Source: an uncultured Clostridia bacterium
Lineage (GTDB): Bacteria; Bacillota; Clostridia; TANB77; CAG-508
DNA: 64,000 nt
Reading direction: 5' to 3'
Assembly (NCBI GenBank): GCA_947626885.1
Contig: CANQTX010000001.1
Coordinates: 30,741-94,740 of the forward strand
In this document: one piece after another, positions 23,225 through 42,576 of the stretch
How positions within the stretch are numbered: position 1 is the first letter of the stretch
How the letters are laid out: each line of letters begins with the position of its first letter
Made by a program: the position numbers and the translations under genes
The notes under the pieces: model-generated
Database searches by the model: none
The model's input: only the letters and a program-made list of their open reading frames with translations
Told to the model about the DNA's origin: nothing

Positions 23225-24160
23225 TTATTCCTTTCTGGCTTTTCGTTCTCTTTCGCAATCAATTAATCTCATTTCAAAGGTTTGTTTTGAATTTTTTATA
23301 ATATTATCTAAAGTCATTCCTGAAAAGAAAGATTGTACAGCACATAAGAAAAATAATACACTAATTACCAATGTTGGTATTTTAACAACACCTCTATTCA
23401 GAAAATCAATAAATACTGGTACAAAAAAAGCTAGTCCAATTATTGTTAAAATAAAAGCTAATAAAGTAAAGAATGCCATTGGTTTATAATTTTTATAGAA
23501 TCCAAAAATAGTTTTTAAAACTTTAATACCATCTGGAATTGTGTTCAATTTTGAAGGACTATCTGCCGGCCTATCTCTATAATCAATAATTATATTTTTT
23601 ACTTTCATATTTTTATCTAAACAATGTATTGTCATTTCGGTTTCTAATTCAAACCCTTTAGACATAACAGGAAATGTTTTTACAAATTTATAACTAAAAG
23701 CTCTTAGTCCTGTCATCACATCACGAATATCACTTTTATAAATTCTATTAATTAACGCTCTAACTGTAACATTTCCTATATTATGAAAAGGTCTTTTATT
23801 CTCTGTAAAATAAGTGGAAGAAAGTCTATCTCCTATTACCATATCTACATTTTCTTCTAAAACAGCTTTCACAAATTCTTTAGCAACCTCTGCAGGATAA
23901 GTGTCATCTCCATCTACCATAATATAACATTCAGCATCAATCTCTCTGAACATGGTTCTGATAACATTTCCTTTTCCTTGTCTTGTTTCATATCTTACAA
24001 TTGCTCCTGCCTCTTTGGCAATTTTATCTGTTCCATCTTTAGAATTATTATCATACACATATATAACTGCCTCTGGTAATTCTCTTCTAAAATCTTCTAC
24101 TACCTTTCTTATGGTTTTTGCTTCATTATAACATGGTACTAAGACTGCTACTTTGTCCAT
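23225..24160 (-). CDS. polyprenyl-phosphate glycosyltransferase (GtrB/CsbB/DPM1-like)
   Basis: 311-aa ORF. GT2 core (AVLVPCYNEAKTI, YDNNSKDGT, VDGDDTY) followed by two C-terminal TM helices. This is the architecture of Und-P-sugar synthases. Confidence 0.85.
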   Translation of the reverse strand: MDKVAVLVPCYNEAKTIRKVVEDFRRELPEAVIYVYDNNSKDGTDKIAKEAGAIVRYETRQGKGNVIRTMFREIDAECYIMVDGDDTYPAEVAKEFVKAVLEENVDMVIGDRLSSTYFTENKRPFHNIGNVTVRALINRIYKSDIRDVMTGLRAFSYKFVKTFPVMSKGFELETEMTIHCLDKNMKVKNIIIDYRDRPADSPSKLNTIPDGIKVLKTIFGFYKNYKPMAFFTLLAFILTIIGLAFFVPVFIDFLNRGVVKIPTLVISVLFFLCAVQSFFSGMTLDNIIKNSKQTFEMRLIDCERERKARKE

Positions 24161-24287: not shown

Positions 24288-24779
24288 TCACAATGATTCT
24301 TTTTTAAAAATAAATAATTTACTAAATACAAAATTTAATATAATAACAACTATATTAGCAATCACTTTCATAATAACATCATTAAAATGAATTATAACAG
24401 CAAAATTCATAAGTCCTATACTAATAGCTTCCGTCACCAATCGACAGCTCACAAAAGATATGATTTCTTTTATAAACGCCTTATGCGTATTCGTTTCACT
24501 TTGAAAAACACATATTTTATTTGTAAAATAAGCAAAAACAACTGCTGCTATAAAAGCAATGATTTCACTCATATTAACTTTTAAAGATTCATTAAATCCT
24601 CTAAATAATATTTGACTACAAAAAATATAAGCTAAAATGTTAACCACAGTAGATAAGGCACCAAAAACAAGATATCGCATTCCCTCTAAATGATTTTCAT
24701 ATATATCTGCTAATTTTCCTAATTTAATTTTCCTTGCTATTTCTAAAAAGAATTTTTCAATTGCTTCCCAGACCTTCAT
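24288..24779 (-). CDS. GtrA-family small membrane protein (putative lipid-linked sugar translocase)
   Basis: 163-aa ORF with 4 TM helices and the YLVFGALSTVVN...FTNKICVF pattern. It is adjacent to the GtrB-like gene. Confidence 0.8.
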   Translation of the reverse strand: MKVWEAIEKFFLEIARKIKLGKLADIYENHLEGMRYLVFGALSTVVNILAYIFCSQILFRGFNESLKVNMSEIIAFIAAVVFAYFTNKICVFQSETNTHKAFIKEIISFVSCRLVTEAISIGLMNFAVIIHFNDVIMKVIANIVVIILNFVFSKLFIFKKESL

Positions 24780-24956: not shown

Positions 24957-26831
24957 CTACACTTTTTTGGTTGCAATATCAAAATGACAAGTATCTCTCC
25001 TAAAATTAGGATTATAATATGGATCTGATACAGATAACGTTTCTTTCCATATTTCTTGAAATTTGTGGCATTCTTCTTGAAATCTTGCTTCTTGCTTTTT
25101 AGAATATTCATAGCCTCTGGTTTTGGATTCATAATGAATTAATTCAACATAAGGATTATATACAATTCGATAGCCTTTTTCAAGGATTTTTAGACAAAAA
25201 TCTACATCATTCAAAGCGATTTTAAAATTTTTCTCGTCCATAAAACCCACTTCTTCATAAATTTCTTTTCTCGTAAACAAACAAGCTCCTGTAACAGCTG
25301 ATACATTACATGTAGCGGCTTCTCTTCCAAAATAAGCATGCTTACCATATGGTAAATTAACAAGAAGATTGGCTGCTATTCCTGATAAACCATAGGCAAT
25401 TCCTGCATGCTGTATGGTTTTATCTTTATAATATAATCTAGCTCCTACAGCTCCAATTTCAGGATTTTGCGCATATCCTATTAAAATCTCTAGCCAATGC
25501 GGTGTTAAAAGCTTTGTATCATTATTTAATTGTAAAATAAAATCACCATCTGCTTGTTTAACGCCAAAATTAATAATAGCAGAATAGTTAAATTCTGGTT
25601 TATCAGTATTTTGAGATATTTCCTTATTGAAATCATCTTGTTTATCATAAGACATACCTACATAAGAAGGATAATATAAAATTTTTATTTTTTCATTTTG
25701 AGAAAGTGTTTTATAATAATCAAATGTTTCTCTTTTTTCACTATTATTTTCTATTATCAAAACTTCATAGTTTTCATAAGTTGTCAATTTTAAAATAGAA
25801 TCTACACAAGTTTTTAGTAATGCAATATTATCTTTATTAGGAATTAAAATAGATACTTTGGGTGTTCCTTCTATTTCAAAGTCAATTTTATAAATGCCAG
25901 GAACATCTTGTCCCAAAGCAACTTTTCCTTTTTTATTTATTCTTTTTAAATGTTCTTCTACCGCTTGTCTTCCTACTTCACAAGCATAGGGCTTACTATC
26001 TATATGGTGAGCTGTAGAATTTCGATGCATTCTCCAATGATATAAAATTTTGGGAATATGGACTATTTTTTGAGCTTGTTCCGTAGCTCGCAAAATAAAA
26101 TCAAAATCTTGTGCACCATCAAATGCACTTCTCAGCATGCCTACTATATCTATTAATGTTCTCTTTACAACAACAAAATGTGTAATATAATTATGACATG
26201 CTAATGTTTCTGGCGCATAGTCTGGCTTAAAATACGGTTCAAAACGATTCCCTTGTTCATCTATCTTATCCTCATCTGTATAAATAAAATCTACCTCTTT
26301 ATTTTGATGAATACATTTTACAATTTCAAATAATGCTTCTGGAGACAATACATCATCATGATCTAAAAAACCAATATATTCTCCTGTTGCCATGAGAATA
26401 GCAGCATTGGTATTATCTGATATTCCTTTATTCTCCTTTAATAATTGATATTTTATTCTTTTATCTTTTTCATAATATTTTCTAAAAATGGCATTTTCTT
26501 TTTCACTACCATCTGCCAAACATAGTTCCCAATTGGTATAAGTCTGATTTTGTAAAGAAACCACTAATTCCTTAAAAAATTTCTCTGGTGTATGATACAT
26601 AGGAACAACAACACTAATTTTCGGCATAATTTCCAATATGCTTTCTCTTTGTACTTTTAACTCCTCTTCTGTTGGATCATTATATTGCATCCATATTGCA
26701 TATTGTTCCTGATTCGTTAAACGATTTTCTTTTATATGTAATATTCTTTTCAAACATTTTTTTAATGTTATCCAAAAACCATATCTTTGCAAATAATATA
26801 TGACTTTATTAACATTATCTTTTATATTCAT
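24957..26831 (-). CDS. bifunctional-type glycosyltransferase with two GT2 domains (paralog 1 of 3)
   Basis: 624-aa ORF. First GT2 domain: KISVVVPMYHTPEKFF, LADGS, FLDHDD. Second GT2 domain: KVSILIPNKDN, IIENNS, QLNNDT, ALNDVDFCLK. Confidence 0.9.
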   Translation of the reverse strand: MNIKDNVNKVIYYLQRYGFWITLKKCLKRILHIKENRLTNQEQYAIWMQYNDPTEEELKVQRESILEIMPKISVVVPMYHTPEKFFKELVVSLQNQTYTNWELCLADGSEKENAIFRKYYEKDKRIKYQLLKENKGISDNTNAAILMATGEYIGFLDHDDVLSPEALFEIVKCIHQNKEVDFIYTDEDKIDEQGNRFEPYFKPDYAPETLACHNYITHFVVVKRTLIDIVGMLRSAFDGAQDFDFILRATEQAQKIVHIPKILYHWRMHRNSTAHHIDSKPYACEVGRQAVEEHLKRINKKGKVALGQDVPGIYKIDFEIEGTPKVSILIPNKDNIALLKTCVDSILKLTTYENYEVLIIENNSEKRETFDYYKTLSQNEKIKILYYPSYVGMSYDKQDDFNKEISQNTDKPEFNYSAIINFGVKQADGDFILQLNNDTKLLTPHWLEILIGYAQNPEIGAVGARLYYKDKTIQHAGIAYGLSGIAANLLVNLPYGKHAYFGREAATCNVSAVTGACLFTRKEIYEEVGFMDEKNFKIALNDVDFCLKILEKGYRIVYNPYVELIHYESKTRGYEYSKKQEARFQEECHKFQEIWKETLSVSDPYYNPNFRRDTCHFDIATKKV

Positions 26832-26908: not shown

Positions 26909-28819
26909 TTATTTCTCATAGTTTACTTTACATTTCTTCATATGGTACACTTCTGTATCTAAACTTAAATTAATATTATAATAAGGATCTCCTTCATCTA
27001 AAAAATCTCGCCAACGATTAGCAAATGTTTCTATTTCTCCTTGAAATCTTTTAATTTTAGCAGGTGTATCTTCTTGTCCTCTCGATTTTGATTCATAATG
27101 CCAAAATTCAATATAAGGATTATATACAATTAAATAACCTTTTTCCCTAATTTTAAGGCAAAAATCAACATCATTAAAAGCTACTGCTAATGTTTCATTC
27201 ATATAACCTACTTCTTCATAAATCTTTCTAGGATTCATCATACATGCAGCTGTTACAGCACTTAGATTTTCAATCATACTTTCTTTTGCAAAATAAGCAT
27301 GTGTATCTTTAGGTATACTTTTAAATCGATTACCAGCAATTCCACCAAGTCCCACAATAATACCTGCATGTTGAATGGTTTCATCTGGATAATATAATTT
27401 TACACCGACACCTCCTACATCTTCTCTTTGTGCAAAACCTAACATTAATTCTATCCAATTGGGTGTTATTAGTTCTGTGTCATTATTCAGTTGAATAATA
27501 TACTCTCCTTCGGAATGTTTCACACCACAATTAATAATAGCAGAATAATTAAACCCTTGTTTTATTTTTCTCGCATGTTCTTTCGTATAGGCTATATTGC
27601 ATTGTAACTTATCTTGTATCATTTTTCCCGTATTATAATTCACTATTTTTATATTACGATTCTGTAATAATGTTTGATAATAAGCAAATATTTCTTCTGT
27701 TTCGCTATTATTTTCTACTATTATAATTTCATAATTTGTATAAGTGGTTTTTGCCAAAATTGACTGAATACATACTGTTAAAATATCCTTTCCATCTTTA
27801 TTGGGAATAACGATAGAAACTTTTGGGGTTCCTATAACAGCATAATCAATTCTATAAATTCCTTCAACAGCACCTTCCGAAACAGTGCCTTCTAATCCCA
27901 CTCTTTTTAAATGATCTTCTATGGCTTTTTTTCCACTTTCAAAAGCATAATTTTTAGCATGACTATTTAATTGCGCTGTAGAATTTTTATGTACTCTCCA
28001 ATGATACAATATTCTTGGGATATGTTTTATTTTTGAAACATCTGTTATTTCTGCCATTCTTAAAAAAATATCATAATCTTGTGCACCATCATAATCTGTT
28101 CTAAAACCACCTAATGTTTCCATTAATTCTTTTTGGAATATACTAAAATGGCAAATATAATTTTGACTTCTTAACGTATCTGGTGCAAAATCTGGCTTAA
28201 AATAGGCATCATAACGATTTCCCTTTTCATCAATTTTATCTTCATCCGAATACAAAAAAGCAACATCTGGGAATTGATTAATACACTTGACCACTTCATA
28301 CAGAGCATATTCTGACAAAATATCATCATGATCCAATAAAGCAATATACTCTCCTGTTGCCATTGCAATAGCGGCATTGGTATTGCCTGCTATTCCTCTA
28401 TTTTCTTTTAATAATTGATATTTTATTCTTTCATCCTTTTCATAATATTTTCTAAAAACAACATTTTCCTCTTCACTACCATCTGCTAGACATAATTCCC
28501 AATTGGTATAAGTTTGATTTTGTACAGAAGTCACTAATGCCTTAAAAAATTTCTCCGGTGTATGATACATAGGAACAACAATACTAATTTTTGGCATTAA
28601 TGGAAATGTTTTCTTTTTCTGCATAGCCAATTCCACATTTCCTACTTCATTGGCATATATCCAATCACCATAATCACCATATTGCGGATCTTTTTCTCCT
28701 GTTATCCATCTTTTTATTTTAATACATCCTACTTTCAGGCATTTTCGAATTGTTTTTAAAAAACCATATTTTCCTAAATAAAATTTTACTTGATTATAAA
28801 TGTTTTTTATTGGACTCAT
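26909..28819 (-). CDS. bifunctional-type glycosyltransferase with two GT2 domains (paralog 2 of 3)
   Basis: 636-aa ORF with the same motif order as 24957-26831. About five of six residues are identical by eye across a 90-aa stretch of the first domain. Confidence 0.9.
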   Translation of the reverse strand: MSPIKNIYNQVKFYLGKYGFLKTIRKCLKVGCIKIKRWITGEKDPQYGDYGDWIYANEVGNVELAMQKKKTFPLMPKISIVVPMYHTPEKFFKALVTSVQNQTYTNWELCLADGSEEENVVFRKYYEKDERIKYQLLKENRGIAGNTNAAIAMATGEYIALLDHDDILSEYALYEVVKCINQFPDVAFLYSDEDKIDEKGNRYDAYFKPDFAPDTLRSQNYICHFSIFQKELMETLGGFRTDYDGAQDYDIFLRMAEITDVSKIKHIPRILYHWRVHKNSTAQLNSHAKNYAFESGKKAIEDHLKRVGLEGTVSEGAVEGIYRIDYAVIGTPKVSIVIPNKDGKDILTVCIQSILAKTTYTNYEIIIVENNSETEEIFAYYQTLLQNRNIKIVNYNTGKMIQDKLQCNIAYTKEHARKIKQGFNYSAIINCGVKHSEGEYIIQLNNDTELITPNWIELMLGFAQREDVGGVGVKLYYPDETIQHAGIIVGLGGIAGNRFKSIPKDTHAYFAKESMIENLSAVTAACMMNPRKIYEEVGYMNETLAVAFNDVDFCLKIREKGYLIVYNPYIEFWHYESKSRGQEDTPAKIKRFQGEIETFANRWRDFLDEGDPYYNINLSLDTEVYHMKKCKVNYEK

Positions 28820-28890: not shown

Positions 28891-31227
28891 CTATATTTCA
28901 TAAATTGCTTTATCAATTCTAATTAAACAATTATTCGATATTGGACTAAAATTAATATTATAATAAGGATCTGGTTTTGCTAATACGCTGTGCCACTTTT
29001 TCTTAAAAGCTTGTACCTCTCTCTTGTAAGCAAAAATATCTTCATCTTCTATTGTTTCTCTTTCATCTGATATATCTCTATCATTCATTTGTACATATGG
29101 TGTATAAACATTAAGATATCCCTTCTCTCTTAATTTAAGTGAAAAATCTACTTCATTAATTTTTTCAAAATGAATCTCTTCACTCATACCTTGCACTTCT
29201 TCAAAAACTTCTTTTCGATACATCCTACATAAGCTAGATATACAACTCATATTAGAAACAAATTTATCCTTTGCACGATACCCATTATAATTTCCTCTAT
29301 ATAGATATTCCGCAAATTCACCGATACCATAAACAATTCCCGCATGCTTAATGGTTCCATTGGGATAATTTACTTTTACACCTACACATCCAACATCTTC
29401 TCTTTGCGCAATACCTATCATACTTTCTAACCATTCCGGTGTTACCACTCTTTCATGCCTATCCAACTCGACAATAAATTGTCCATCTACATGTTTTACT
29501 GCAAAATTCATTAATTGAGAATAATTTGCTTTTTCAAAATCACAATTCGCTATTTCTGTTTCACTCACTTGACCATTAATCATATCTTGTACAGTTATGG
29601 TATTATTAGAAAACGTTTGATCTGCATAATGCCACACTTTTATATTGGCATGCTTCTCTAATTGCTTATAAAAGGTAAGTGTTTCTTTATTATCAGTGGC
29701 ATTGTCAATAACATCAATTTCAAAATTATCATAGGTTGTTTTTTCTAAAATTGTTTTAATACATTCTTGCAAATGTATAATATCATCTGTATTAACAATA
29801 ACAATGTTCACTTTAGGATGATTTTTCACAGAATAATTTACTGTATAAATTCCATAATATTCTTTGTGTCGTTTAGCAATAGCTTTTATTCCCATTCTAT
29901 CTAAATGATGTTGAACCGCTTTAGCACCTGCTTCATATGCATATAGTTTTGCTTCTGAATTTCCTGCAGTTGATCCAGGATGGATTCTCCAATGGTACAA
30001 GACTTTAGGAATATGGTAAATCTCATTTGCTTTTGCCAATTCTGTAGCTCGCAATATAATATCAAAATCTTGTGCACCATCATAATCACTTCTAAATCCT
30101 TCTAATTGATCCATTAATTCTTTTTTGAAGATACTAAAATGACAAATGTAATTTCCTCCTAATAAAAAATCGGGAGAATAATCAGGTTTAAAATGTGGAT
30201 CATATCTTGGCTTATCAATCGCCTCTATTTTATCTTCATCTGTATAAATAAATCTCACTTCAGGATGAACATTAATACAATTTACAACTTCATATAAAGC
30301 ATTCAATGGCAACAAATCATCATGATCTAATAAAGCAATATAATCACCTGTTGCAAGTTTTAACGCTTCATTAGAATTCCCAGAAATGCCCTTGTTTTCG
30401 CCAATAAAAGTATACTTGATTCTTTTATCTTTCGCACACATACTTTCTATTTCTGTAAGCCTCTCTGGACTCCCATCTGCTAAACATAATTCCCAATTGG
30501 TATAAGTTTGATAATATACCGTAAACAGTAACTCTCTAAAAAATTTAGTTGGTGTATTATATAAAGGAATAATAATACTAATTTTAGGTTTTATAGTAAA
30601 GTGCTTTGAAGCTTCCTGTTGTTCTTTGATATCCGCCAAAGAACAATCATTTAACTTTCCCCAAAATTCATAGGGATCTGAATCCGATTGTAAAATAGCA
30701 TTTTCTATTTGTTCTCTTCTTTTTTTCCATATCTTCTCTAATACTAGCCAATATTCTGCTGTTTCTTCATCCGTAGCATTTCTTATATTTTGTACTCTTA
30801 AAATTTCTTTTTTCTCTGCACGTTTTTTATCAATTTTCTCTCTTCTTCTAGTTCCAAGAGGACAAAATCGATCTAATAAACTAAGACCATTACCAAAATT
30901 TAAAATATGAATGATTCTCCTGATTTTACTAACAATTTTCCAAGAAGTCGTATTTGCCATTGCTCTTACTTCATTTGCATAGTCAACAACTTTTGCTCTA
31001 GCATCCTCTAATTCTAAATGCAAATCATGATTCTGTTTTTCTAATTGTTCTACACTTTCCTGAAGAGCAAACGCTTGCTTTTTATAAATTTCTCTTTGTC
31101 TATTTTGTTTTTGTAACTGTTTTTCTAGATTTCCTATAGTTAAATAATGTCTAAAGAAAATATCATGCACTTCATAATCAAATGTTCTATCTCTTAAATC
31201 TTTTTCTAATAATTCAAATAAATCCAC
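28891..31227 (-). CDS. double-GT2 glycosyltransferase with an N-terminal coiled-coil extension of about 185 aa (paralog 3 of 3)
   Basis: 778-aa ORF. Residues about 30-90 are heptad-like (NLEKQLQKQNRQREIYKKQAFALQESVEQLEKQNHDLHLELEDARAKV). The same double GT2 core follows (KISIIIPLYNTP, LADGS, LLDHDD; KVNIVIVN, IDNAT, EVDFSLK). Confidence 0.9.
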   Translation of the reverse strand: MDLFELLEKDLRDRTFDYEVHDIFFRHYLTIGNLEKQLQKQNRQREIYKKQAFALQESVEQLEKQNHDLHLELEDARAKVVDYANEVRAMANTTSWKIVSKIRRIIHILNFGNGLSLLDRFCPLGTRRREKIDKKRAEKKEILRVQNIRNATDEETAEYWLVLEKIWKKRREQIENAILQSDSDPYEFWGKLNDCSLADIKEQQEASKHFTIKPKISIIIPLYNTPTKFFRELLFTVYYQTYTNWELCLADGSPERLTEIESMCAKDKRIKYTFIGENKGISGNSNEALKLATGDYIALLDHDDLLPLNALYEVVNCINVHPEVRFIYTDEDKIEAIDKPRYDPHFKPDYSPDFLLGGNYICHFSIFKKELMDQLEGFRSDYDGAQDFDIILRATELAKANEIYHIPKVLYHWRIHPGSTAGNSEAKLYAYEAGAKAVQHHLDRMGIKAIAKRHKEYYGIYTVNYSVKNHPKVNIVIVNTDDIIHLQECIKTILEKTTYDNFEIDVIDNATDNKETLTFYKQLEKHANIKVWHYADQTFSNNTITVQDMINGQVSETEIANCDFEKANYSQLMNFAVKHVDGQFIVELDRHERVVTPEWLESMIGIAQREDVGCVGVKVNYPNGTIKHAGIVYGIGEFAEYLYRGNYNGYRAKDKFVSNMSCISSLCRMYRKEVFEEVQGMSEEIHFEKINEVDFSLKLREKGYLNVYTPYVQMNDRDISDERETIEDEDIFAYKREVQAFKKKWHSVLAKPDPYYNINFSPISNNCLIRIDKAIYEI

Positions 31228-32443
31228 ATATTCCCAAATTCCGAAAAGCTTTTAATAAAGACTCTTTTCCCAGTTTTTCTAAACAATTTGTGGTATTTAA
31301 TAATGCCCTATAATAAATATACTCTACCGGAATATTATATTCTATCCACTCTTGATCAAATACTTTTAGGTTTCCCTCTATATAAAAACAATTCTTAGGA
31401 ATTAAATCAATAAATCCCCTTCTCAAAAAATGCAAACTTTTCAATTTTTCTGGATGATACATTTGAATACATTTTTTTATGGTGAATAGTTGCTCTTTTT
31501 CCTTATGATATGTATCTTTTCTTTGGGTAATCATTGCTTTTTCTTTTTGAATGTCCTTTATTAAGTCTTCATAAGTACAAGTATCTTTATTTAACACCTC
31601 TTTTAAAATTTGAAACTTCTCCATAAACTCTTCTATGGTACTTGTTTCTGAAAGTACAATATCAAATCGTTTATGCTTAATAAACTGACTGATAATTTGA
31701 CCATCTTTTTTATTTTCAATAACATCAATTCCCATTTGTCTGAGCTCTTGTATATTTCTTTCCATTTGCTCCATATGGTTCTGTGCTTGTTTATCAGCTA
31801 CTTTTTTAATAACAACATCTTCTTTAATTAATGTCATCATACGATATTCGGGTTTTCGATAATTAGTAAATGCCACATATTTGATATCTGTATTAATTGG
31901 TTTTTGTGATACTTCTATAAAAAACGAATTGGCAAATTGATTAACATATGTCTTATCTTCTTTTAACAACTGTTGATAAACATCATTCTCATTAAGATGT
32001 ATAATTGTATTTTGAGGATATACCGCAAAATTCCTTGTTATATCTTCCTCCGTTAAACTATAGTCTTCACTATAAATTAAATTAGCCATTTCAAAATTAG
32101 GAAAAACATAATAGAATTTTGTAAAATGCAATTGATTTTGCTCAAAAAGAGATAGCAACGTATTTTTACTAATATCTTTTTCCAAAGCATTTGTAGTATT
32201 CCAATTTTTTAAACCAAATTGATTATCTATAGCAATTAATATTTTACCATCCTCTTTGATATAATTTTTAGCAAGTAACAATTTTTGTTCAAATTCTGAT
32301 GAATATTTCCCTATTATTGTTATATAATCATATTGTTTGTCTAATTTTTCGTAACCATTTTCTATATGAAAAATAGAAGCATTCTCTTTAAAAGGATACC
32401 ATAATAAAATATTTTTTTTAAATTCCAACAATCTTGCTTCCAT
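31214..32443 (-). CDS. two-lobed protein: degenerate methyltransferase-like N-lobe plus protein-kinase/APH-like C-lobe (WbdD-like candidate chain terminator)
   Basis: The ORF track starts at a GTG (32467). The ATG at 32441-32443 has an SD (gaaagga) 7 nt upstream, so I place the start there. The 3' end overlaps the next gene start by 14 nt. See findings for motifs. Confidence 0.75.
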   Translation of the reverse strand: MEARLLEFKKNILLWYPFKENASIFHIENGYEKLDKQYDYITIIGKYSSEFEQKLLLAKNYIKEDGKILIAIDNQFGLKNWNTTNALEKDISKNTLLSLFEQNQLHFTKFYYVFPNFEMANLIYSEDYSLTEEDITRNFAVYPQNTIIHLNENDVYQQLLKEDKTYVNQFANSFFIEVSQKPINTDIKYVAFTNYRKPEYRMMTLIKEDVVIKKVADKQAQNHMEQMERNIQELRQMGIDVIENKKDGQIISQFIKHKRFDIVLSETSTIEEFMEKFQILKEVLNKDTCTYEDLIKDIQKEKAMITQRKDTYHKEKEQLFTIKKCIQMYHPEKLKSLHFLRRGFIDLIPKNCFYIEGNLKVFDQEWIEYNIPVEYIYYRALLNTTNCLEKLGKESLLKAFRNLGICGFI

Positions 32444-32501: not shown

Positions 32502-33797
32502 TTAAATTTTACGTACTGTAATATGAGAATCTAACCTTACTATACCAACTGTATTTTTAGTTGTAATAACTTCTATTAACAAAGCATCATATTTTCTACT
32601 TAAAACTTCTAGTTCTCCTTTTAGATTAAATCTTGTACAACTAAAAGATAATGTATATTTTCCAACAGCTATTGGTAATTTTTGTTTAAATTCTGCAATA
32701 ACAATATCGCCTTTTTTGAAATTTCCTGTTAACACCTTTTCAATCTCTGAATTGGTACCAGCTATATCATTTCCATTAAAATCTTTTACTGTCATTGTAA
32801 ATATTGGATCTTTAACATCTTTATAAAACTTTACTTTCGATTTTAAAATAATCGTATCAGCGTTATCAAAAACATTAATAGCATTTCCCTCTAAATCAAA
32901 CATTCCATAGTCAATTACTTCAGCGTCCTTATTACCATACTCAATAATATTAGGATTTTGATTAAATTTTTCTTTCCAAGTTTCAGAATCATCCATTTTG
33001 ATAGAAATTTCCTCTAATTGCTTATCTAGTTGTTCTTCTCTTTGGACATCTTCAGGACTTAATCCTACAATAATCTTTTTATAACGATTCACTCCATCTT
33101 TAACAGAACCATCAAAAGTTTTTCTACCATTTTCGATAATAATAGCTCTATTACAATTTTTCAAAACATCTGTCACATTATGTGTAACAAATATAATTGT
33201 TTTACCACTATTTTTAAATTGTTCAAACTTTTTAAAACATTTTAATTGAAATGCCATATCTCCTACAGATAGTACCTCATCTACAATTAAAATATCTGGA
33301 TTAACATTAATTGCACAAGCAAATGCCAAACGAGCAAACATACCTGAAGAATATGTTTTAACAGGTTGATATAAATGATCTCCTATGTCTGCAAAATCAA
33401 TAATTTCTTGCTCTTTTTCTTTAATTTCCGCATCTGTTAGTCCCATAACTTGTCCATGTTGATAAATATTCTCTATTCCGGTTAAATCTGGATTAAACGC
33501 AGCTCCTAATTCTAATAAAGAACTTATTTTTCCATTCACTTCAATTTCCCCAGAAGTCGGACTCACAACTCCCGTAATCATTTTTAATAAAGTAGATTTT
33601 CCGGCACCATTCTTTCCTAAAATTCCTAATACTTCTCCTCTTCGAATTTCAACATTAAAATGATCCATCGCTCTAAACGTACCATGTTTCTTATAGCCTG
33701 GAACAATCGCCTCTAATAATCGGTCCTTTTTCCTATCAAACATCTTATATTCTTTAACTAAATTGGTTATTTTAATGACTACATCATTATCCTTCAT
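32502..33797 (-). CDS. polysaccharide ABC exporter ATP-binding protein, Wzt/TagH type, with a C-terminal extension domain
   Basis: Walker A GKNGAGKST, signature YSSGM, Walker B ILIVDEVLSVGD, plus a beta-rich C-terminal domain of about 150 aa. I place the start at the ATG at 33795-33797 (MKDNDVVIKITNL, SD gagagg 7 nt upstream). The 25 extra codons in the ORF track are encoded by a hairpin arm. Confidence 0.9.
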   Translation of the reverse strand: MKDNDVVIKITNLVKEYKMFDRKKDRLLEAIVPGYKKHGTFRAMDHFNVEIRRGEVLGILGKNGAGKSTLLKMITGVVSPTSGEIEVNGKISSLLELGAAFNPDLTGIENIYQHGQVMGLTDAEIKEKEQEIIDFADIGDHLYQPVKTYSSGMFARLAFACAINVNPDILIVDEVLSVGDMAFQLKCFKKFEQFKNSGKTIIFVTHNVTDVLKNCNRAIIIENGRKTFDGSVKDGVNRYKKIIVGLSPEDVQREEQLDKQLEEISIKMDDSETWKEKFNQNPNIIEYGNKDAEVIDYGMFDLEGNAINVFDNADTIILKSKVKFYKDVKDPIFTMTVKDFNGNDIAGTNSEIEKVLTGNFKKGDIVIAEFKQKLPIAVGKYTLSFSCTRFNLKGELEVLSRKYDALLIEVITTKNTVGIVRLDSHITVRKI

Positions 33798-33819
33798 ATT
33801 ATATCCTCTCTGTTCCTTT

Positions 33820-33950
33820 TGTCCTTTTAGGAACGTTAGTTTTTGGACATTTATGACCCAATAGGGACACATGTTATTGGATGAGAAAAAATTTTATATT
33901 CGTATAAAATTGGACTAAAATGTCCAAAAACTAACGTCCCTAAAAGGACA
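33820..33950 (-). repeat. 131-nt element: 32-nt inverted repeat arms (33820-33851 and 33919-33950) around a 67-nt loop
   Basis: 31 of 32 positions are complementary. The single exception is a G-U wobble on the minus (sense) transcript but an A-C mismatch on the plus strand. It overlaps the stop codon of the GT2 gene and ends 22 nt before the wzt start codon (about 9 nt before its SD). Confidence 0.85.
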
Positions 33951-34923
33951 AAAGAGATACTTTCTTTTTTATGTTAAATAATATTCTAGCTACTATAGGT
34001 ATGTTTAAAATTATAAAATTCTCCATTTTATAATTCCATGTTTCGTATTGATACAATTTAAAAAACAATTTCCAATTCTTTACATTTAAATATTGTTTTT
34101 TTTCCAAATGTTCAAAATATTGCAAACTTTGTCTATTAAGAATTCTAATTTTTTCTTCTTTAAATTTTTCTTCTTGTTGTATAAAAACTGAAAAATGTTG
34201 CTTTTTTACTTCTATAAATAAATTTCTCATTTCATCAAAATTAGAAATTTTATCTGATTTTCTTTTAGAACCAATATGATTGTTTTTATGTTGTCTATAT
34301 TGAATTAAAGGTTCTTCTAAATAAGCTATTTTTCCTTCTTGACTCGCTATTAATGCTATCCAATAATCATGCAACACATATTTACTACTGTGAGGTAATG
34401 GTAAAGCCTTGGTAATAATTTCTTTTTTACAAAGCATGGTACAACCAGTTATAAAATTATTTAAGTACAAACTTTCAAAATGATTATACTGTTTTATTTT
34501 ATGATACAATCCTTTAAATCTCCAATATGATGGTTCAATTATGTGTAGATCACTATCTACAATTTCTAAATCTGTATAAACAAGTTCTGCGTTTGTTTCT
34601 TTTATTTTTTCTATGGATTTTTCTATTTTCTCCTTTTTCCATATATCATCTTGATCACAAAACATAAACCATGGACTCTCCACTTTCTGGAGTAAAAATT
34701 CAAAGTTCTTAATAACACCCATATTTTTTTCTTGATAAAAATAATAAATTCTACTGTCTTTTTGTGCGTAATTCTCTATAATACTTCTCGTATTATCAGA
34801 AGATTTATCATCAGAAATAAGTAGTCTAAAATCCATATAAGTTTGACTTAAAATACTCTCAATCTGCTCTGCCAAATATTTTTCGCCATTATATGTTGCC
34901 ATTATAATATCAACTTTTGCCAT
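33940..34923 (-). CDS. family-2 glycosyltransferase
   Basis: VDIIMATYNGEKYLAEQIESILSQTY, SDDKSSDNT and CDQDDIW motifs. I place the start at the ATG at 34921-34923 (MAKVDII, SD agaaagg). The upstream ATG in the ORF track has no SD. Confidence 0.88.
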   Translation of the reverse strand: MAKVDIIMATYNGEKYLAEQIESILSQTYMDFRLLISDDKSSDNTRSIIENYAQKDSRIYYFYQEKNMGVIKNFEFLLQKVESPWFMFCDQDDIWKKEKIEKSIEKIKETNAELVYTDLEIVDSDLHIIEPSYWRFKGLYHKIKQYNHFESLYLNNFITGCTMLCKKEIITKALPLPHSSKYVLHDYWIALIASQEGKIAYLEEPLIQYRQHKNNHIGSKRKSDKISNFDEMRNLFIEVKKQHFSVFIQQEEKFKEEKIRILNRQSLQYFEHLEKKQYLNVKNWKLFFKLYQYETWNYKMENFIILNIPIVARILFNIKKKVSLLSF

Positions 34924-34977
34924 GAAATTTACCTTTCTTTTATTGCTCTCTTTTTGGTTAGCCATACGTGTTTTTTG

Positions 34978-35781
34978 TTACAATACATCTGCAAAGTCTT
35001 TTCTTGTCTTTTTAAATACGGCATTTCCCCATAGGAATAATAAAATGGTAATAACCCAAAAAATAATAGAATACATACCGTAATTTTCTGTAATAATTGT
35101 TGAATCCTTCATAAAAGCTTGTCGAAATCCTTCTACTAAATATGTAAATGGAAATGCTTTAAAAAACTTTCTCCAAGCATCTGAAAGCATAGTTAAATTC
35201 CAAATAATAGGAGTAAACCACATAAATAATTGCATAAGAATATTTAACAATTGTGCAAAGTCTGGTACAACTGTGGTTAAAGCCGATGTAAATCTTGTTA
35301 ATGCAATAATAAATGTTAAAGCACAAAATAAAATATATACTACTGTTAGGAAATTCGGGATATAACGAAAGATAGAAGCTACAACAATGGCTATACAAAT
35401 TAAAAATATTCCTATAAAACTGGAAGATATGATTGATATAATAGGAATAATATCTACCGGAAAAACAACCTTTTTTACTAAATAACTATAATTTCTAATA
35501 GAATTACTTGCTGTAAGAATAGCATCACTACAGAATAACCACATTGCCATTCCTGGTAAAAACCATACAACATAAGGGTACTCTCCATTACTATTGGATT
35601 TTAAGATGTATTGAAATACAATTACATAGGTTAACATAAATACAAATGGCTGTGCAAACCCCCAGATTGTACCAAGCCCTGTACCAGCAAATCGGTTTCT
35701 AAAATCGTTCTTTCCTAATTGCATTGTTAATTTTCTGTTTTTGAAAAGTATTTTTAAAAATTCCATTCTTCTACTTAACAT
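34978..35781 (-). CDS. polysaccharide ABC exporter permease, Wzm/TagG type (ABC-2)
   Basis: 267-aa ORF with 6 TM helices and the ABC-2 N-terminal pattern LGKNDFRNRFAGTGLGTIWGFAQPF. The exact start is uncertain (no clear SD). Confidence 0.88.
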   Translation of the reverse strand: MLSRRMEFLKILFKNRKLTMQLGKNDFRNRFAGTGLGTIWGFAQPFVFMLTYVIVFQYILKSNSNGEYPYVVWFLPGMAMWLFCSDAILTASNSIRNYSYLVKKVVFPVDIIPIISIISSSFIGIFLICIAIVVASIFRYIPNFLTVVYILFCALTFIIALTRFTSALTTVVPDFAQLLNILMQLFMWFTPIIWNLTMLSDAWRKFFKAFPFTYLVEGFRQAFMKDSTIITENYGMYSIIFWVITILLFLWGNAVFKKTRKDFADVL

Positions 35782-36014: not shown

Positions 36015-37181
36015 TTAGGTTTCCATCTTTTCTTTTATAATATCTACAATTATCCTAGAGGCATTCTCATTTTCTACAAACCCCATTTTATCGATAAAAG
36101 ATTTTGTTTTTTGTAGAAATGTTTCTTCTGAAAAATGGCGAATATTGTTGATTAATTCCTCACTGGTTAATGCTATTGATTCTGAAAAATCCTTCCAATC
36201 AAAATAAAACTTTCTTTCACTTTTTTTATAATTTTCTAAATCTTTTGCTAATAGAAAGGTTGGTTTATTTAATCTTAAAAAAGTAAATATAATACCTGAA
36301 TAATCAGATATCAATACATCTGATATGGCAATTAATTCCTGCATATCGGGATATAACGTAGCATTTAATATTCGTTCATTATAGGTAATTTCCTTACTTT
36401 CAGCTTGTACAATAGGATGTAATCTGATTAGTAAAACAAACTTACCTCCAAATTTTTTTTCTAATTCATCACAACACTTCTGATAATCAAATGTATATAC
36501 TGATAAATCGGACTGATTTCTAAAAGTAGGTGCATACAATGCAATTTTATAATGATTATCTATATGAAAATACTGATAAACTTTATGTTTTATTGCTTCT
36601 GTAGGATGAAAAATAATATCATTTCTTGGAATACCACATTTTAATATTTTTCCATCATACCAAAAAGCATTTCGAAATAAATGTTCCTGAAAGGTATTAC
36701 TAGTAAACATTAAGTCTGTTCTTTTGGCATCTTGTTTTGCCGCTTTTACATATTCAGGACTTAAACTATCTTCTGCATCAGCTTCTATGTATTTATTAGG
36801 TAATTCTCCGTGCCAAGTTTGAATATAAAATTGATTCTTCTTTTTTCTAATGCCATTACCAACTCTAACATTATCTATCCAAATTTTAGCAGTGGCTAAT
36901 TCCCAAAAAGCTTTTATACTACCAATTTTCACTTTTCTTATTTGGTGCGGTATTTCCTCTTCTAGATTGTTTACGAGCCATACCATATCACAATCAATTC
37001 CTTGCTTTATGATTTCTTCTGCTATATATTTAGGATTACAACCATATCCTTTGCCTGAAAAATTATCAAAAACAATTTTATTATTTCTTACCCTACCAAA
37101 TAAGTAACATATATTTTTTATTATATATTTTCCCAAACCATATAAATCCGCTTGCAGTTTTTTTATTTTTTCTACAATCAT
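36015..37181 (-). CDS. CDP-glycerol glycerophosphotransferase family protein (TagB/TagF-like)
   Basis: 388-aa ORF with YIQTWHGELPNK, LYAPTFRN and ISDYSGIIF motifs characteristic of the TagB/TagF family. Confidence 0.88.
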   Translation of the reverse strand: MIVEKIKKLQADLYGLGKYIIKNICYLFGRVRNNKIVFDNFSGKGYGCNPKYIAEEIIKQGIDCDMVWLVNNLEEEIPHQIRKVKIGSIKAFWELATAKIWIDNVRVGNGIRKKKNQFYIQTWHGELPNKYIEADAEDSLSPEYVKAAKQDAKRTDLMFTSNTFQEHLFRNAFWYDGKILKCGIPRNDIIFHPTEAIKHKVYQYFHIDNHYKIALYAPTFRNQSDLSVYTFDYQKCCDELEKKFGGKFVLLIRLHPIVQAESKEITYNERILNATLYPDMQELIAISDVLISDYSGIIFTFLRLNKPTFLLAKDLENYKKSERKFYFDWKDFSESIALTSEELINNIRHFSEETFLQKTKSFIDKMGFVENENASRIIVDIIKEKMET

Positions 37182-37228
37182 GCTCTACTCCTAATATCAG
37201 TCAATTTTTTCTATAGGTTTATTATATT

Positions 37229-37654
37229 TTATTCATCAAACTCATTACAAAAAGCAATAAACTTATCTCTTAGTTTGGTAGATGAAACATTTTTGGTATA
37301 TGGAAAATAAATAATTTTAATTCCTTCTTCAGCAAATTCTTTTTCGTATTGGTTCCATTTATCTGTATGATACCAATCATCTCCTACAAACATAATCGAT
37401 GCACCTAGCTTTTTACACATTGTTAATTTGTCCATATCGTATTGTGGTACAGCTGCATCTACATATTTACATGACCTTACAATTTCTATTCTTTCCTCAA
37501 AAGGAATGATAGCATTTTTTCCTTTGTAAGAAACTAATTCGTCTACTGTAACACCTACAATTAGCTTATCACACATTCCTTTTGCATTTTTAAATAAATT
37601 TAAGTGTCCCATATGAAATAAATCATATACACCTGCCGTATACCCTATTTTCAT
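37229..37654 (-). CDS. tagD: glycerol-3-phosphate cytidylyltransferase
   Basis: 141-aa ORF. GYTAGVYDLFHMGHLNLFKNAK (HXGH nucleotidyltransferase motif), with the size and C-terminal VSSTKLR motif typical of TagD/TarD. Confidence 0.92.
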   Translation of the reverse strand: MKIGYTAGVYDLFHMGHLNLFKNAKGMCDKLIVGVTVDELVSYKGKNAIIPFEERIEIVRSCKYVDAAVPQYDMDKLTMCKKLGASIMFVGDDWYHTDKWNQYEKEFAEEGIKIIYFPYTKNVSSTKLRDKFIAFCNEFDE

Positions 37655-37699: not shown

Positions 37700-38905
37700 T
37701 TATATTTTTTTTCTATAATAATTGTATATCTTTTCTATATCTTCTATTTTTCCATTTCCCTGTATCGGAAATTCACCGTAAGTTTTAATATATTTGTATA
37801 AATACCAAAGTACTTTATATTTATTATACATTCTATAATAATTTCTATTATATTTTATACGATACTGATGATCTTTCGCATATCTGAGTGTATTATCATT
37901 CAATGTTATAATAAACGGTCCTGCTCCATATAATACAGGAAATAACGAAATATGACAATCTAAATACGTTACATCTAAATGTCTTATTTCATCTATTAAG
38001 AATTGGTGTCTATTTACTCTTATGGTCTTATTGATAATTAAGAGTTTTGTTTCATCATTAGCAAATAATAAATTATGTGGTAATGTACCACTAATGGCAG
38101 CTACTACATTACTTTTTTTCATAATTTGTATTTGTTGCTTCACAGTATATTTTTCTGGTGCTATAATTTTAAAGCCATTGTGTTGCAACCACTTTTCAAT
38201 TGATTTTTCTCCTATTTCTTTTTTATTAGCTGTTTTTAAATGCTGTCTAGAAAAATATACTTTATCATAAGGTACTTCTGTATCTTCTACATTCTCTTTT
38301 ATAGTATCAAATATAAATTTATATTCCTTTGTATAATATTTCCCAGGATATAAAGCACTTTCGGGTATAATAATTTTTTTAAATTTTGTTGGTTGATGAA
38401 TGCTTATTAAGTTTTCTTTCGCAATTCCTAGTAAATTTAAAAATTCTAAATAATGTCCCGAAATTTGATTGTTTTTTCCTTTCTCAACAATATAAGCAAT
38501 TTTTACATTTTCTTTTTCTTGTAATTTTTGGATAACATACCATAATCTACTAACTACATCTATTAAAAAATGCCCCCAATGTGCGATAAAAAAATTCATA
38601 TATATTACAGTTTCATCCCTTTTTATTAATGCCTTTTCCTCAATATCATATTTTCCTCTTACTCTATCATTCATATGAAATGCAACTTGCGCAGATGCTT
38701 CTACATAGTTTCCCTTGCTATCTACTACACCACCGCTACCCCATAATGTACCATAAGGGTTACTCTTTGTATTTACAGGAAGTAACACACCTTCTTCTAT
38801 TTCTAAGACAGCTAATTGTTTATCCACATAATATTGTTTTTGTGCTAATGCTTCATATTCTTCTCTAGCAATATCATCCATATATTCAAAATGATATTTT
38901 TTCAT
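37700..38905 (-). CDS. GT61 (DUF563) family glycosyltransferase
   Basis: The HWGHFLIDVVSRLWY motif and overall size fit the family. I place the start at the ATG at 38903-38905 (MKKYHFEY, SD aggaagga upstream). Confidence 0.8.
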   Translation of the reverse strand: MKKYHFEYMDDIAREEYEALAQKQYYVDKQLAVLEIEEGVLLPVNTKSNPYGTLWGSGGVVDSKGNYVEASAQVAFHMNDRVRGKYDIEEKALIKRDETVIYMNFFIAHWGHFLIDVVSRLWYVIQKLQEKENVKIAYIVEKGKNNQISGHYLEFLNLLGIAKENLISIHQPTKFKKIIIPESALYPGKYYTKEYKFIFDTIKENVEDTEVPYDKVYFSRQHLKTANKKEIGEKSIEKWLQHNGFKIIAPEKYTVKQQIQIMKKSNVVAAISGTLPHNLLFANDETKLLIINKTIRVNRHQFLIDEIRHLDVTYLDCHISLFPVLYGAGPFIITLNDNTLRYAKDHQYRIKYNRNYYRMYNKYKVLWYLYKYIKTYGEFPIQGNGKIEDIEKIYNYYRKKI

Positions 38906-38956
38906 AATTTTTGTATTCCTTCCTAACAACATCTACTCAAATAACAATTTATTTTT

Positions 38957-40420: not shown

Positions 40421-40458
40421 ATATTATATATTCCTCTTATCTTTTCCTTTTTCTCTCA

Positions 40459-41436
40459 CTACATGCTTCTTCTTATATGATTTTTTATTTTTAGTAAAAA
40501 GTTTAACAGGTTAGGAAATCTTCTAAATAACTTATATTTTAACTTTGTTGTTTTAGCAATAGGTAATTTCATAAAGTCTGGATAATTTCTCTTAAATTTT
40601 TCTAACAACTTTTTCTGTTCCAAAGATGCATGTTTCATATGTTTTTTTATTAATCCATAGTAAGTAATCAATATATAAGCATATAGATCTAAACTTTTTT
40701 GATATAATTGTTTATCTTTTTCCTTAAAAAATGCCATTCTTTCTTCAAGCGCTATAATATAGTCTAATCTCTTTTTATCAAATGTTTTATACATAATACT
40801 ATTAGGGTTTTGCCTGTAATAATATAAAATTGCATTAGATATTACAATTTTATTATTAGCAGCCCAAAATAACTGATAGGTTGTAAATTCATCTTCATGA
40901 ATTTTTCCTTTAGGAAATTGAATATTATTGAAAAGTCTTTTTTTATATAATTTATTCCAAACAACTACAGTATTGATATACTCATCACCATATAATCTCT
41001 CTACCATCTCTTTATTATGAATTACTTCTTCCACAGGTTCTTCTGGCTTTATGGCGGTAATATCATGAAAAAATCTTGTATATGCACATTGTGCTATATC
41101 TGCCCCATATGTCTTACACAAATGATATAAATATTCTATAAATTTTTTATCAACACAGTCATCAGAATCAATAAAACAAATATATTCTCCTGTAGCATAT
41201 TGAATTCCCGTATTTCTAGCATCGCTTAATCCTCCGTTTTCTTTATGAATGACCTTAATTCTGTGATCTTTTTTAGCATACCACTCACAAATTTCTCCAC
41301 ATCTATCTGTTGATCCATCATCGACCAAAATAATCTCCAAATGTTTATAAGTTTGACAAATAATACTATCAATACATTCTTTTAAATATTTTTCTACTTG
41401 ATAAATTGGTACTACAACTGTTATTAAAGTTTCTAT
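40459..41436 (-). CDS. family-2 glycosyltransferase whose conserved N-terminus has no canonical start codon (ATA start or start-codon loss)
   Basis: The ORF track starts at an internal TTG (41340, MEIILVDDGS). The same frame stays open 32 codons further upstream and encodes the canonical GT-A start IETLITVVVPIYQVEKYLKECIDSIICQTYKH. An SD (agagg) lies 9 nt before an ATA at 41434-41436. There is no ATG/GTG/TTG between the upstream stop and 41340. Confidence 0.7.
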   Translation of the reverse strand: METLITVVVPIYQVEKYLKECIDSIICQTYKHLEIILVDDGSTDRCGEICEWYAKKDHRIKVIHKENGGLSDARNTGIQYATGEYICFIDSDDCVDKKFIEYLYHLCKTYGADIAQCAYTRFFHDITAIKPEEPVEEVIHNKEMVERLYGDEYINTVVVWNKLYKKRLFNNIQFPKGKIHEDEFTTYQLFWAANNKIVISNAILYYYRQNPNSIMYKTFDKKRLDYIIALEERMAFFKEKDKQLYQKSLDLYAYILITYYGLIKKHMKHASLEQKKLLEKFKRNYPDFMKLPIAKTTKLKYKLFRRFPNLLNFLLKIKNHIRRSM

Positions 41437-41491
41437 TTTCTTTTACCTCTCAATAAAATATTTTCTCATTTTATACGTTTTTTCAGTTAAT

Positions 41492-41521
41492 ATTGTACGA
41501 TAACCCATTACTTTTTGTCAA
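41492..41521 (-). promoter_or_regulatory. near-consensus sigma-A promoter directly upstream of the ATA-start GT2 gene
   Basis: Minus strand reads TTGACA - 18 nt - TACAAT. Confidence 0.6.
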
Positions 41522-41547
41522 CTTTCTTTTCTATCAAGCAAATATTT

Positions 41548-42549: not shown

Positions 42550-42576
42550 ATGTATTTCCGTTAGTATTATTCTAAT

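Follow-up and report, generated by a model that had tools for sequence, protein, structure and literature searches.

A frameshift-split gene in a Clostridia glycan locus is probably a terminator–ruler–polymerase enzyme with a degenerate methyltransferase

INTRODUCTION

Enzymes that join a glycan polymerase, a coiled coil, and a chain terminator have been described in ATP-binding cassette (ABC) transporter-dependent systems, and we compare them here with a gene on the minus strand of a 64,000-nucleotide stretch of DNA (below, the window) from an uncultured Clostridia bacterium of the GTDB lineage TANB77; CAG-508 (GenBank assembly GCA_947626885.1, contig CANQTX010000001.1, forward-strand positions 30,741 to 94,740). 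The gene appears in the window as two overlapping open reading frames (ORFs), an upstream one for a product of 409 amino acids and a downstream one for a product of 778 amino acids, the latter with two family 2 glycosyltransferase (GT2) modules behind an N-terminal extension.

The closest of the described systems is that of Klebsiella pneumoniae O7, in which ORF6, hereafter ORF6(O7), carries a methyltransferase, a kinase, a carbohydrate-binding module (CBM), a coiled coil, and two GT2 modules, in that order (J Biol Chem 2024, PMC11231755). Biochemistry and mutagenesis established that it caps a rhamnan with (methyl)phosphate, and its kinase, which sequence comparison had left unannotated, was recognized through its likeness to the aminoglycoside-type kinase AmiN (PMC11231755). 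The authors see the hallmark of such systems in a coiled-coil protein with a distal terminator, the polymerase modules being variably spread among proteins (PMC11231755). Both K. pneumoniae O12 WbbB and O7 ORF6 are already known to unite polymerase, ruler, and terminator in one polypeptide (PMC11231755). WbdD is trimeric and needs the helix after its kinase for oligomerization and kinase activity (PMC3482155), and its coil acts as a ruler, as PMC11231755 cites Hagelueken et al. 2015. Among Gram-positive bacteria, WsaE of Geobacillus stearothermophilus NRS 2004/3a joins an N-terminal methyltransferase terminator to two rhamnosyltransferase domains for an S-layer glycan (PMC2943079). Reviews of rhamnan systems state that there is no experimental evidence on chain length or termination (PMC9574508), and how chain length is set and ended in Gram-positive ABC transporter-dependent wall polysaccharides is largely unresolved.

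Our reading of the window, which we hold at a probability of roughly three in four, is that the 409- and 778-amino-acid ORFs are one disrupted gene, and that the coiled coil seems to be an N-terminal extension of a glycosyltransferase (GT) only through the split. Positions 30673-31227 would then encode an internal linker of a single multimodule enzyme of about 1183 amino acids (32443..28891, minus strand).

RESULTS

A frameshift divides one reading frame into two.

Full-length homologs span 99 to 100% of the 778-amino-acid ORF and are themselves 1108 to 1290 amino acids long; their N-terminal 400 or so residues align to the upstream 409-amino-acid ORF, and some of them have Pfam methyltransferase domains at the N terminus. 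Each fused homolog gave two abutting tblastn matches in the window, one in frame -1 (32443..31244) and one in frame -2 (31245..28906), so that in P0002, for example, residues 1-398 fall in the first frame and residues 398-1149 in the second. Deleting one G from the GGG run at the break yields a single ORF of 1183 amino acids, and deleting a T from the TTTT run would serve equally well; because the boundaries of the tblastn matches favor the latter, the insertion most likely lies in the T4 run. The sequence spanning the site is AAAGCUUUUCGGAAU. The upstream ORF ends in LLKAFRNLGICGFI followed by its stop codon, the other frame reads LFGIWEYVDLFELLEK, and the homologs read LLRKFGLLDYVDLFEELEK (positions of these and all other features are given in Table 1).

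Homology to the full-length relatives continues in the same frame upstream of the GTG at 31227, which indicates that this codon is not the native N terminus. The Shine-Dalgarno pairing of the GTG is also weak, at -4.2 kcal/mol with a spacing of about 3 nucleotides, compared with -5.9 to -9.0 kcal/mol for the neighboring genes. All modules share one polypeptide in 72 fused homologs and at 21 of 24 related loci; in the window genome they are spread over two.

Since the site lies within short homopolymer runs (T4 and G3), the frameshift might be a sequencing or assembly error that hides an intact gene of 1183 amino acids. The junction string, the exact 409-amino-acid product, and the 14-nucleotide overlap of the ORFs, however, recur identically in five assemblies, four of them metagenome assemblies from ENA and one built by Logan from a public run, which are 99.98 to 100% identical to the window over 1.6 to 6.4 kb. 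Five concordant assemblies make a one-off error unlikely and point to a genuine allele, and we regard an artifact as extremely improbable. A search of the window for other frameshifts, as a sign of error-prone assembly, found none that was convincing. The near-identity of the assemblies carries, for its part, no information on selection after the split.

A genuine frameshift could be one that is read through. In that case GCU-UUU-CGG-A would serve as a +1 site at which tRNA-Phe slips from UUU to UUC at the rare CGG, and the cell would make the fragment together with some full-length enzyme. Known +1 sites, for example those of Ty1 and prfB, combine a slippery codon with a rare one, and CGG occurs just twice among the 19,458 codons of the window, once (31241-31243) directly after UUU (31241-31247 in all). 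The +1 reading KAFGIWEYVDLF (KAFGIWEYVD) matches KFGLLDYVDLF of homologs, and the allele is stable across assemblies. We nevertheless consider recoding very unlikely. No homolog shares the frameshift, hence there is no conservation, and no Shine-Dalgarno-like stimulator was seen upstream. Moreover, a T inserted into TTC-GGA gives UUU-CGG automatically, and a rare codon is what one would expect both of a plain mutation and of a sequence read out of frame.

The upstream half resembles a methyltransferase remnant followed by a kinase.

The 409-amino-acid product has no match in Pfam or NCBIfam. PDB chains were searched with a profile of the family and with two sequences, this product and a fused homolog. 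The matches were GT2s, generic methyltransferases, and weakly matching coiled-coil proteins, and neither WbdD nor another terminator was among them. The identity of the upstream half was taken only from an AlphaFold2 model (mean predicted local distance difference test [pLDDT] 87.7, predicted template modeling score [pTM] 0.85) and Foldseek.

The N-terminal part of the model matches class I S-adenosylmethionine (SAM)-dependent methyltransferases (2p7h and 3cc8). Motif I reads HIENGYEK where intact members have EIGxGFGE, and where intact members have a SAM-binding half of 57 residues, the remnant has only 11. About one-third of family members keep EIGxGFGE, and about two-thirds of the 72 fused homologs have no glycine-rich loop. 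Loss of the methyltransferase motif leads us to predict a bare phosphate as the cap, which by analogy with the characterized enzymes is probably what the kinase adds. Given that the kinase residues are invariant, phosphate-only capping of a Gram-positive wall polysaccharide may hold for much of the Clostridial family.

The rest of the product resembles aminoglycoside phosphotransferase (APH) and choline kinases. Its best Foldseek matches are the capreomycin phosphotransferase 7f0a, the APH(2'') structure 3hav, and LicA 4r7b (E of about 1e-4, probability 1.0), and the kinases matched include those for aminoglycosides, capreomycin, macrolides, and choline. K213, D346, N351, and the D363-Q-E-W motif are invariant in 38 aligned homologs, and a D-x4-N...D spacing is typical of protein-kinase-like enzymes. 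By its predicted fold and these residues, then, an aminoglycoside-kinase-like domain with a catalytic aspartate stands between the methyltransferase and the coil.

The extension comprises a coiled coil, an amphipathic helix, and a basic hairpin.

The window holds three double-GT2 ORFs (778, 636, and 624 amino acids) that can be aligned throughout their GT regions (44% and 41% identity). Some 144 N-terminal residues of the 778-amino-acid protein are without counterpart in both paralogs, and the region common to them starts at about residue 145. A first-pass annotation of the window had described an extra N-terminal segment of about 145 residues with a heptad-like helix at residues 30-90 or so, followed by a further segment and a second basic helical stretch. 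The alignment and the structural model agree with this description, as the heptad register runs unbroken from I31 to M90 within a predicted helix at residues 18-91, and a helix at residues 94-109 and a hairpin at residues 127-175 follow. The model, like all residue numbers called fused here, refers to the frameshift-corrected protein of 1183 amino acids, for which AlphaFold2 was run at full length.

A crude heptad scan found this single, uninterrupted register with a maximum score of 9.25, against 6.2 +/- 0.9 for shuffled sequences, and the region gave weak profile matches to the coils of keratin, Smc, and liprin. If helical throughout, the coil would be about 110 Å long. At the level of the family, the hydrophobicity spectrum peaks at exactly 3.50 residues (power 8.4, median 0.6) and has a power of 2.1 at 3.60, which identifies a heptad repeat and not a plain amphipathic helix.

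Beyond the coil lies the SWK helix, whose tryptophan W96 is invariant in our alignments. The TSWKIVSKIRRI segment is predicted to be helical, and nowhere else in the extension is the hydrophobic moment as high (0.51, with a net charge of +4). This cationic amphipathic helix is a candidate for anchoring the ruler, by its membrane-proximal end, to the membrane surface. The loop LSLLDRFCPLGTRRRE that follows contains an invariant D, P, G, and R (alignment A3) and leads into the basic hairpin, modeled as helices 532-556 and 559-580 in fused numbering.

The coil varies in length by whole heptads between fixed flanks.

We measured segment lengths in the 72 fused homologs from four landmarks: the kinase DQEW motif, the linker start at F409, the SWK tryptophan, and the first GT2 module. 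In 69 homologs F409 comes a constant 43 residues after DQEW, and the spacing between the SWK tryptophan and the first GT2 hardly varies, at about 116 to 121 residues. The coil segment between them measures 85, 92, 99, 106, 113, 120, 127, 134, or 155 residues in 53 sequences, and a second series of 74, 88, 95, 102, and 130 residues is offset by 3 or 4. Nine of the 19 distinct lengths fall in one class modulo 7 (p of about 2e-4), and among moduli from 2 to 12 the best is 7. At 92 residues, the segment of the window gene is one heptad longer than in its nearest relatives (85 residues; 57 to 64% identity), the additional heptad being approximately IGNLEKQ at 31117-31137 on the minus strand. A roughly twofold change in length, made in heptads between fixed catalytic units, is the behavior of a length-tunable spacer, and these sequence lengths appear to fit a spacer or ruler role.

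The coil could instead be an oligomerization or membrane scaffold, or a single alpha-helix, that assembles a GT complex and has no part in chain length. Oligomerization is a general role of coiled coils, and this coil has a very high content of E, K, Q, and R as well as several polar core positions (Q41, R45, and N66). On the other hand, the variation from 74 to 155 residues is confined strictly to the coil segment and proceeds in heptad steps while the flanks stay fixed, and the terminator always stands at the end of the coil far from the GTs, as in the demonstrated ruler systems (PMC11231755). Such variation is typical of a spacer on whose length diversifying pressure acts. We therefore judge a role in assembly alone to be rather unlikely. 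A single alpha-helix would, in addition, need no multiples of seven, and a single alpha-helix domain in place of a coiled coil was rejected on account of the hydrophobic a/d core, the 3.50-residue periodicity, and the multiples-of-seven indels.

Relatives keep the coil on the terminator.

A search with the 409-amino-acid product found 118 stand-alone relatives of about 480 to 620 amino acids. In 115 of these, DQEW is followed by a tail of 122 to 163 residues that takes in the junction helix, the coil, and SWK, with the C terminus some 20 residues past the SWK motif. The exceptions to this long tail have 51 (on a short contig) and 93 residues. The product in the window, by comparison, stops 44 residues after DQEW, at a position that no natural variant uses and that falls inside a confidently folded element.

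The related loci, 24 in number, come from species-representative genomes, all of them metagenome-assembled genomes (MAGs) of gut Clostridia. Kinase and coil lie in one ORF at 21 of them. The gene order wzm–GT2–wzt(CBM)–gene–double-GT2–gtrA–GT2–GT2 is common to the window and the related loci, most of which have a double-GT2 gene 3' of the fused gene. Two loci distribute the modules in other ways. At L028 (2386-8514, from a Clostridiaceae MAG), a methyltransferase–short coil–SWK terminator of 369 amino acids with an intact GAGMGA motif occurs together with a methyltransferase-like–kinase–coil terminator of 481 amino acids and separate GT2-GT2 proteins, which makes two terminators in one locus. 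At L064 (367-2541), P0063 is a stand-alone coil–SWK–GT2–GT2 protein of 724 amino acids that is followed by wzm and preceded by a promoter-like sequence (TTGAAA-17-TATAAT) and a GGGGGAG ribosome-binding site; no kinase or methyltransferase is found upstream on its short contig. It is the sole clear natural case of a coil on a GT. The distribution of modules among proteins is thus flexible. Two further searches added little, as phmmer with the 215-residue extension found 10 proteins among 1.84 billion representatives, mostly known ones or fragments, and a profile search with the SWK-linker alignment A5 found one fragment only. Looking up the exact 778-amino-acid product on contigs gave no record.

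The first-pass annotation had placed the coil on the GT and away from the terminator-like protein, as a different wiring of the principle by which coils on WbdD or WbbB set chain length. Such a wiring is not supported, since the window holds one gene cut by a frameshift and the coil is attached to the terminator in the 72 fused homologs and in 115 of the 118 stand-alone relatives; the place of the coil on the GT does not come from a designed rewiring. The ruler principle fares better in that a coil with lengths stepped by heptads does lie between terminator-like and polymerase GT modules in an ABC transporter-dependent system.

The two products might still work as a pair, with the 409-amino-acid terminator and the coil-bearing 778-amino-acid polymerase reassembling after a restart at the GTG. 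The five other assemblies carry the allele with both ORFs otherwise intact, the GTG/TGA overlap of 14 nucleotides is compatible with translational coupling, and both the L064 protein, with its strong ribosome-binding site, and the arrangement at L028 offer natural precedents for other distributions of the modules. The cut, however, is made at the start of a confidently modeled helix that is continuous with the kinase, while the stand-alone terminators keep the junction helix, the coil, and SWK in 115 of 118 cases and none ends where the window product does. Removal of the equivalent helix from WbdD abolishes trimerization and impairs the kinase (PMC3482155). The Shine-Dalgarno sequence is misplaced as well as weak, and assemblies at least 99.98% identical give no evidence of selection after the split. 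We find a working two-protein system unlikely, and a single disrupted gene remains our preferred reading: a split between the kinase domain and its helix and coil probably detaches the terminator from the ruler and impairs the terminator.

The GT2 modules match dual polymerases.

The first GT2 module matches domain 2 of the chondroitin polymerase K4CP by sequence in the PDB. The second has DRHER for NNDTE (29446-29469) and NDRDI for HYESK (29059-29088, both on the minus strand); DRHER is found in the 778-amino-acid protein and its closest fused relatives, and NNDTE in the paralogs and more distant fused homologs. This divergence may reflect a change in the metal or donor site or in activity. 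The double-GT2 paralogs, which are probably additional polymerase modules, match the rhamnosyltransferase model TIGR01556 weakly.

The gene lies in an ABC transporter-dependent glycan cluster.

With a G+C content of about 29% and virtually every gene on the minus strand, the window contains the 778-amino-acid ORF within an ABC transporter-dependent glycan cluster. The order of wzt is kept in about 20 related loci, and comparison of ribosome-binding sites puts the probable start of Wzt at the ATG at 33797. Analogy suggests that this Wzt-CBM protein is the putative export partner that reads the capped chain end. Downstream of the double-GT2 genes are gtrA, two further GT2 genes, and a gene for a DUF7657 membrane protein. 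The GtrA-like flippase (24288-24779), a GT2 (23225-24160), and the DUF7657/DUF7654 protein (19987-22113; all minus strand) look like a three-component set for extracytoplasmic addition of side-chain sugars. Such genes also lie 3' of the fused gene in many related loci, and a second large DUF7657/DUF7654 membrane protein is encoded at 62085-63962 on the minus strand.

The TagD-like and TagB/F-like genes (36015-37654) stand directly upstream of wzm, and glycerol phosphate may be part of a linkage unit or a decoration; neither gene was found within 8 kb in the related loci. A complete dTDP-L-rhamnose pathway is present on the minus strand (rmlB, 58513-59487; rmlC, 59544-60218; rmlA, 60154-61074; rmlD, 61115-61981), and the polymer made by the GT2 modules is therefore possibly rhamnose-containing. 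These genes and those for ChW-repeat proteins lie farther upstream in the direction of transcription than the glycan cluster.

A second, Wzx-dependent glycan cluster adjoins the first (37700-51207, minus strand). At 51402-58207 (minus strand) lie genes for three large proteins with ChW (clostridial hydrophobic W) repeats, presumably surface proteins associated with the wall; together with the low G+C content, they point to a Clostridia-type organism. Elsewhere in the window, a conserved Firmicute cluster of a PASTA-domain Ser/Thr kinase, a PP2C phosphatase, and an RlmN-like radical SAM enzyme occupies 7293-11156 (minus strand), and acetate kinase and phosphotransacetylase genes are found at 868-3105.

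Table 1. Positions of the modules of the split gene and of neighboring genes in the window
Feature	Positions	Strand	Remarks
Upstream ORF (409/417 amino acids)	31214-32443/32467	-	No family match
Methyltransferase-like remnant	31859..32443	-	Residues 1-195 of the 409-amino-acid ORF; class I methyltransferase fold without the SAM-binding half
APH/choline-kinase-like domain	31238..31858	-	Residues ~196-402; putative chain-terminating kinase
Frameshift site	31233..31247	-	One extra base in the T4 run (31244-31247) or the G3 run (31233-31235)
Stop codon (TGA) of upstream ORF	31214-31216	-
Start codon (GTG) of downstream ORF	31225-31227	-
Downstream ORF (778 amino acids)	28891-31227	-	Two GT2 modules and the N-terminal extension
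Junction helix	31183..31227	-	Fused residues 403-420, 778-amino-acid residues 1-15; pLDDT 91-93, continuous with the kinase-like domain (AlphaFold2)
Coiled-coil spacer	30955..31176	-	One helix of 74 residues; 778-amino-acid residues 18-91, fused residues 423-496 (AlphaFold2)
SWK helix TSWKIVSKIRRIIHIL	30901..30948	-	778-amino-acid residues 94-109; AlphaFold2 helix at fused residues 499-514
Loop LSLLDRFCPLGTRRRE and basic helical hairpin	30703..30900	-	Connects the ruler to the GT modules
First GT2 module	29863..30582	-	PF00535, E=1.6e-33; DHDD motif at 30316-30330
Second GT2 module	28894..29817	-	PF13641 and PF13632, weak; paralog alignment
Double-GT2 paralog (636 amino acids)	26909-28819	-	No extension
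Double-GT2 paralog (624 amino acids)	24957-26831	-	No extension
Wzt-type ABC ATPase with C-terminal CBM	32502-33872	-	PF00005; PF14524 (Wzt_C), E=1.5e-33
GT2	33940-34965	-	Between wzm and wzt
Wzm-type ABC-2 permease	34978-35781	-	PF01061; 73-84% identity and synteny in related loci
TagB/F-like glycerophosphotransferase (CDP-glycerol)	36015-37181	-	Between the TagD-like gene and wzm
TagD-like cytidylyltransferase	37229-37654	-	First in the transcription order of the cluster
MOP flippase	38957-40420	-	Second cluster
Several GT2s		-	Second cluster
DUF6077		-	Second cluster
PglC-like sugar transferase	47487-48173	-	Second cluster
DegT aminotransferase	48184-49320	-	Second cluster
Polysacc_synt_2 dehydratase	49327-51207	-	Second cluster

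DISCUSSION

Read from its N terminus, the intact enzyme would have a degenerate methyltransferase, an APH-type kinase as terminator, the coil, the SWK helix, the hairpin, and two GT2 modules as polymerase. By analogy with WbdD, WbbB, and ORF6(O7), these GT2 modules and the two double-GT2 paralogs would extend an undecaprenyl-linked glycan at the membrane, probably one that contains rhamnose. The SWK helix would anchor the base of an oligomeric coil there, at the end of which the distal kinase would reach and cap only those chains that exceed a threshold length. The CBM of Wzt would then recognize the capped chain, and Wzm/Wzt would export it.

Several points weigh against this account. In the monomer model the long helix has a pLDDT of just 51 to 72, although this is the level expected when a coil is modeled as a monomer, and in the window sequence alone the heptad signal is modest, with a shuffle p of about 0.1 for the 3.5-residue hydrophobic periodicity. 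No sequence similarity between WbdD and the window protein was detected: no WbdD chain was returned by PDB sequence searches at E<=10 or stood among the top 50 Foldseek matches. The modeled fold is without the SAM-binding half, so the capping chemistry would differ from that of the characterized systems. L064 does encode a natural coil–SWK–GT2–GT2 protein that stands alone behind its own promoter-like sequence and ribosome-binding site, and the frameshift allele recurs in five further assemblies in which both ORFs are otherwise undamaged.

The last of these points raises the prospect that the frameshift is a maintained allele, working either by +1 slippage at UUU-CGG or by reassembly of the two halves in trans, in which the polymerase would supply the final helix of the kinase domain. 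The ratio of terminator to polymerase sets chain length in Escherichia coli O9a. A maintained allele would encode this stoichiometry at translation, and in the case of slippage it would give a set ratio of fragment to full-length enzyme. We think this unlikely, and continue to favor a gene disrupted by mutation.

Whatever the fate of the split allele, the locus belongs to a large family in gut Clostridia whose terminator–ruler–polymerase layout is the one proven in Klebsiella. The family provides a natural series of coil lengths in whole heptads, from about 56 to 137 helical residues, and includes fused, unbundled, and methyltransferase-less variants, a comparative test set for the ruler model beyond Gram-negative O antigens. 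There is also a practical lesson: the apparent N-terminal extension and the apparent new wiring both stem from a frameshift, and the proper annotation of the two ORFs is that of one disrupted gene.

How far the window gene agrees with described systems differs from module to module. Its C-terminal GT2-GT2 unit matches the dual GT-A polymerases K4CP (2z86/2z87) and PmHS2 (8vh7/8vh8) both in sequence (E=1e-25) and in fold (Foldseek E of about 1e-20), but those enzymes have neither terminator nor ruler and belong to capsule pathways. WsaE, like the window gene, is part of a Gram-positive ABC transporter-dependent system and is encoded beside wzm/wzt (PMC2943079), whereas it caps with a 2-O-methyl group and the methyltransferase motif of the window gene is gone; a search of the literature for a WsaE coiled coil returned nothing relevant. 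In WbbB of K. pneumoniae O12 and Raoultella terrigena, a single polypeptide has a terminator at one end, a coil in the middle, and two GTs at the C terminus (Williams et al. 2017, as cited in PMC11231755). Its terminator, however, is a beta-3-deoxy-D-manno-oct-2-ulosonic acid (Kdo) glycosyltransferase of family GT99, and its GTs are of other families; no GT99 terminator was found in the window protein, the terminator half of which has methyltransferase-like and kinase-like folds. WbdD of E. coli O9a and K. pneumoniae O3, with a methyltransferase, a kinase, a coil, and a C-terminal membrane helix, has the layout of the 115 stand-alone relatives, but it is separate from the polymerase WbdA and its kinase resembles eukaryotic protein kinases.

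ORF6(O7) is the nearest counterpart, compared here by its published description. Shared with it are the order of modules on one polypeptide, the central coiled coil between the terminator and two C-terminal GT2 modules (identified here by Pfam and by Foldseek matches to K4CP and PmHS2), a kinase that is invisible to profiles and has an APH-like fold, additional GTs in separate proteins, and linkage to rml genes and to wzm and wzt, an adjacent pair with a CBM at the C terminus of Wzt, as seen from the Pfam families and the conserved synteny. Three features of ORF6(O7) are missing from the window gene: the glycine-rich SAM loop, where the beta1-beta3 half is deleted; the Ig-like CBM between kinase and coil, where the AlphaFold2 model shows no beta domain and the spacing is a constant 43 residues; and the single polypeptide, which the frameshift has split. 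The window protein further differs in the conserved SWK helix after its coil and in its origin from a Gram-positive, Clostridia-type genome. On the strength of the architecture as described, it is plausible that the window gene works like the ORF6 and WbdD systems. We conclude that it is probably a new representative of the known terminator–ruler–polymerase systems, one that is Gram-positive, degenerate in its methyltransferase, and split by a frameshift.

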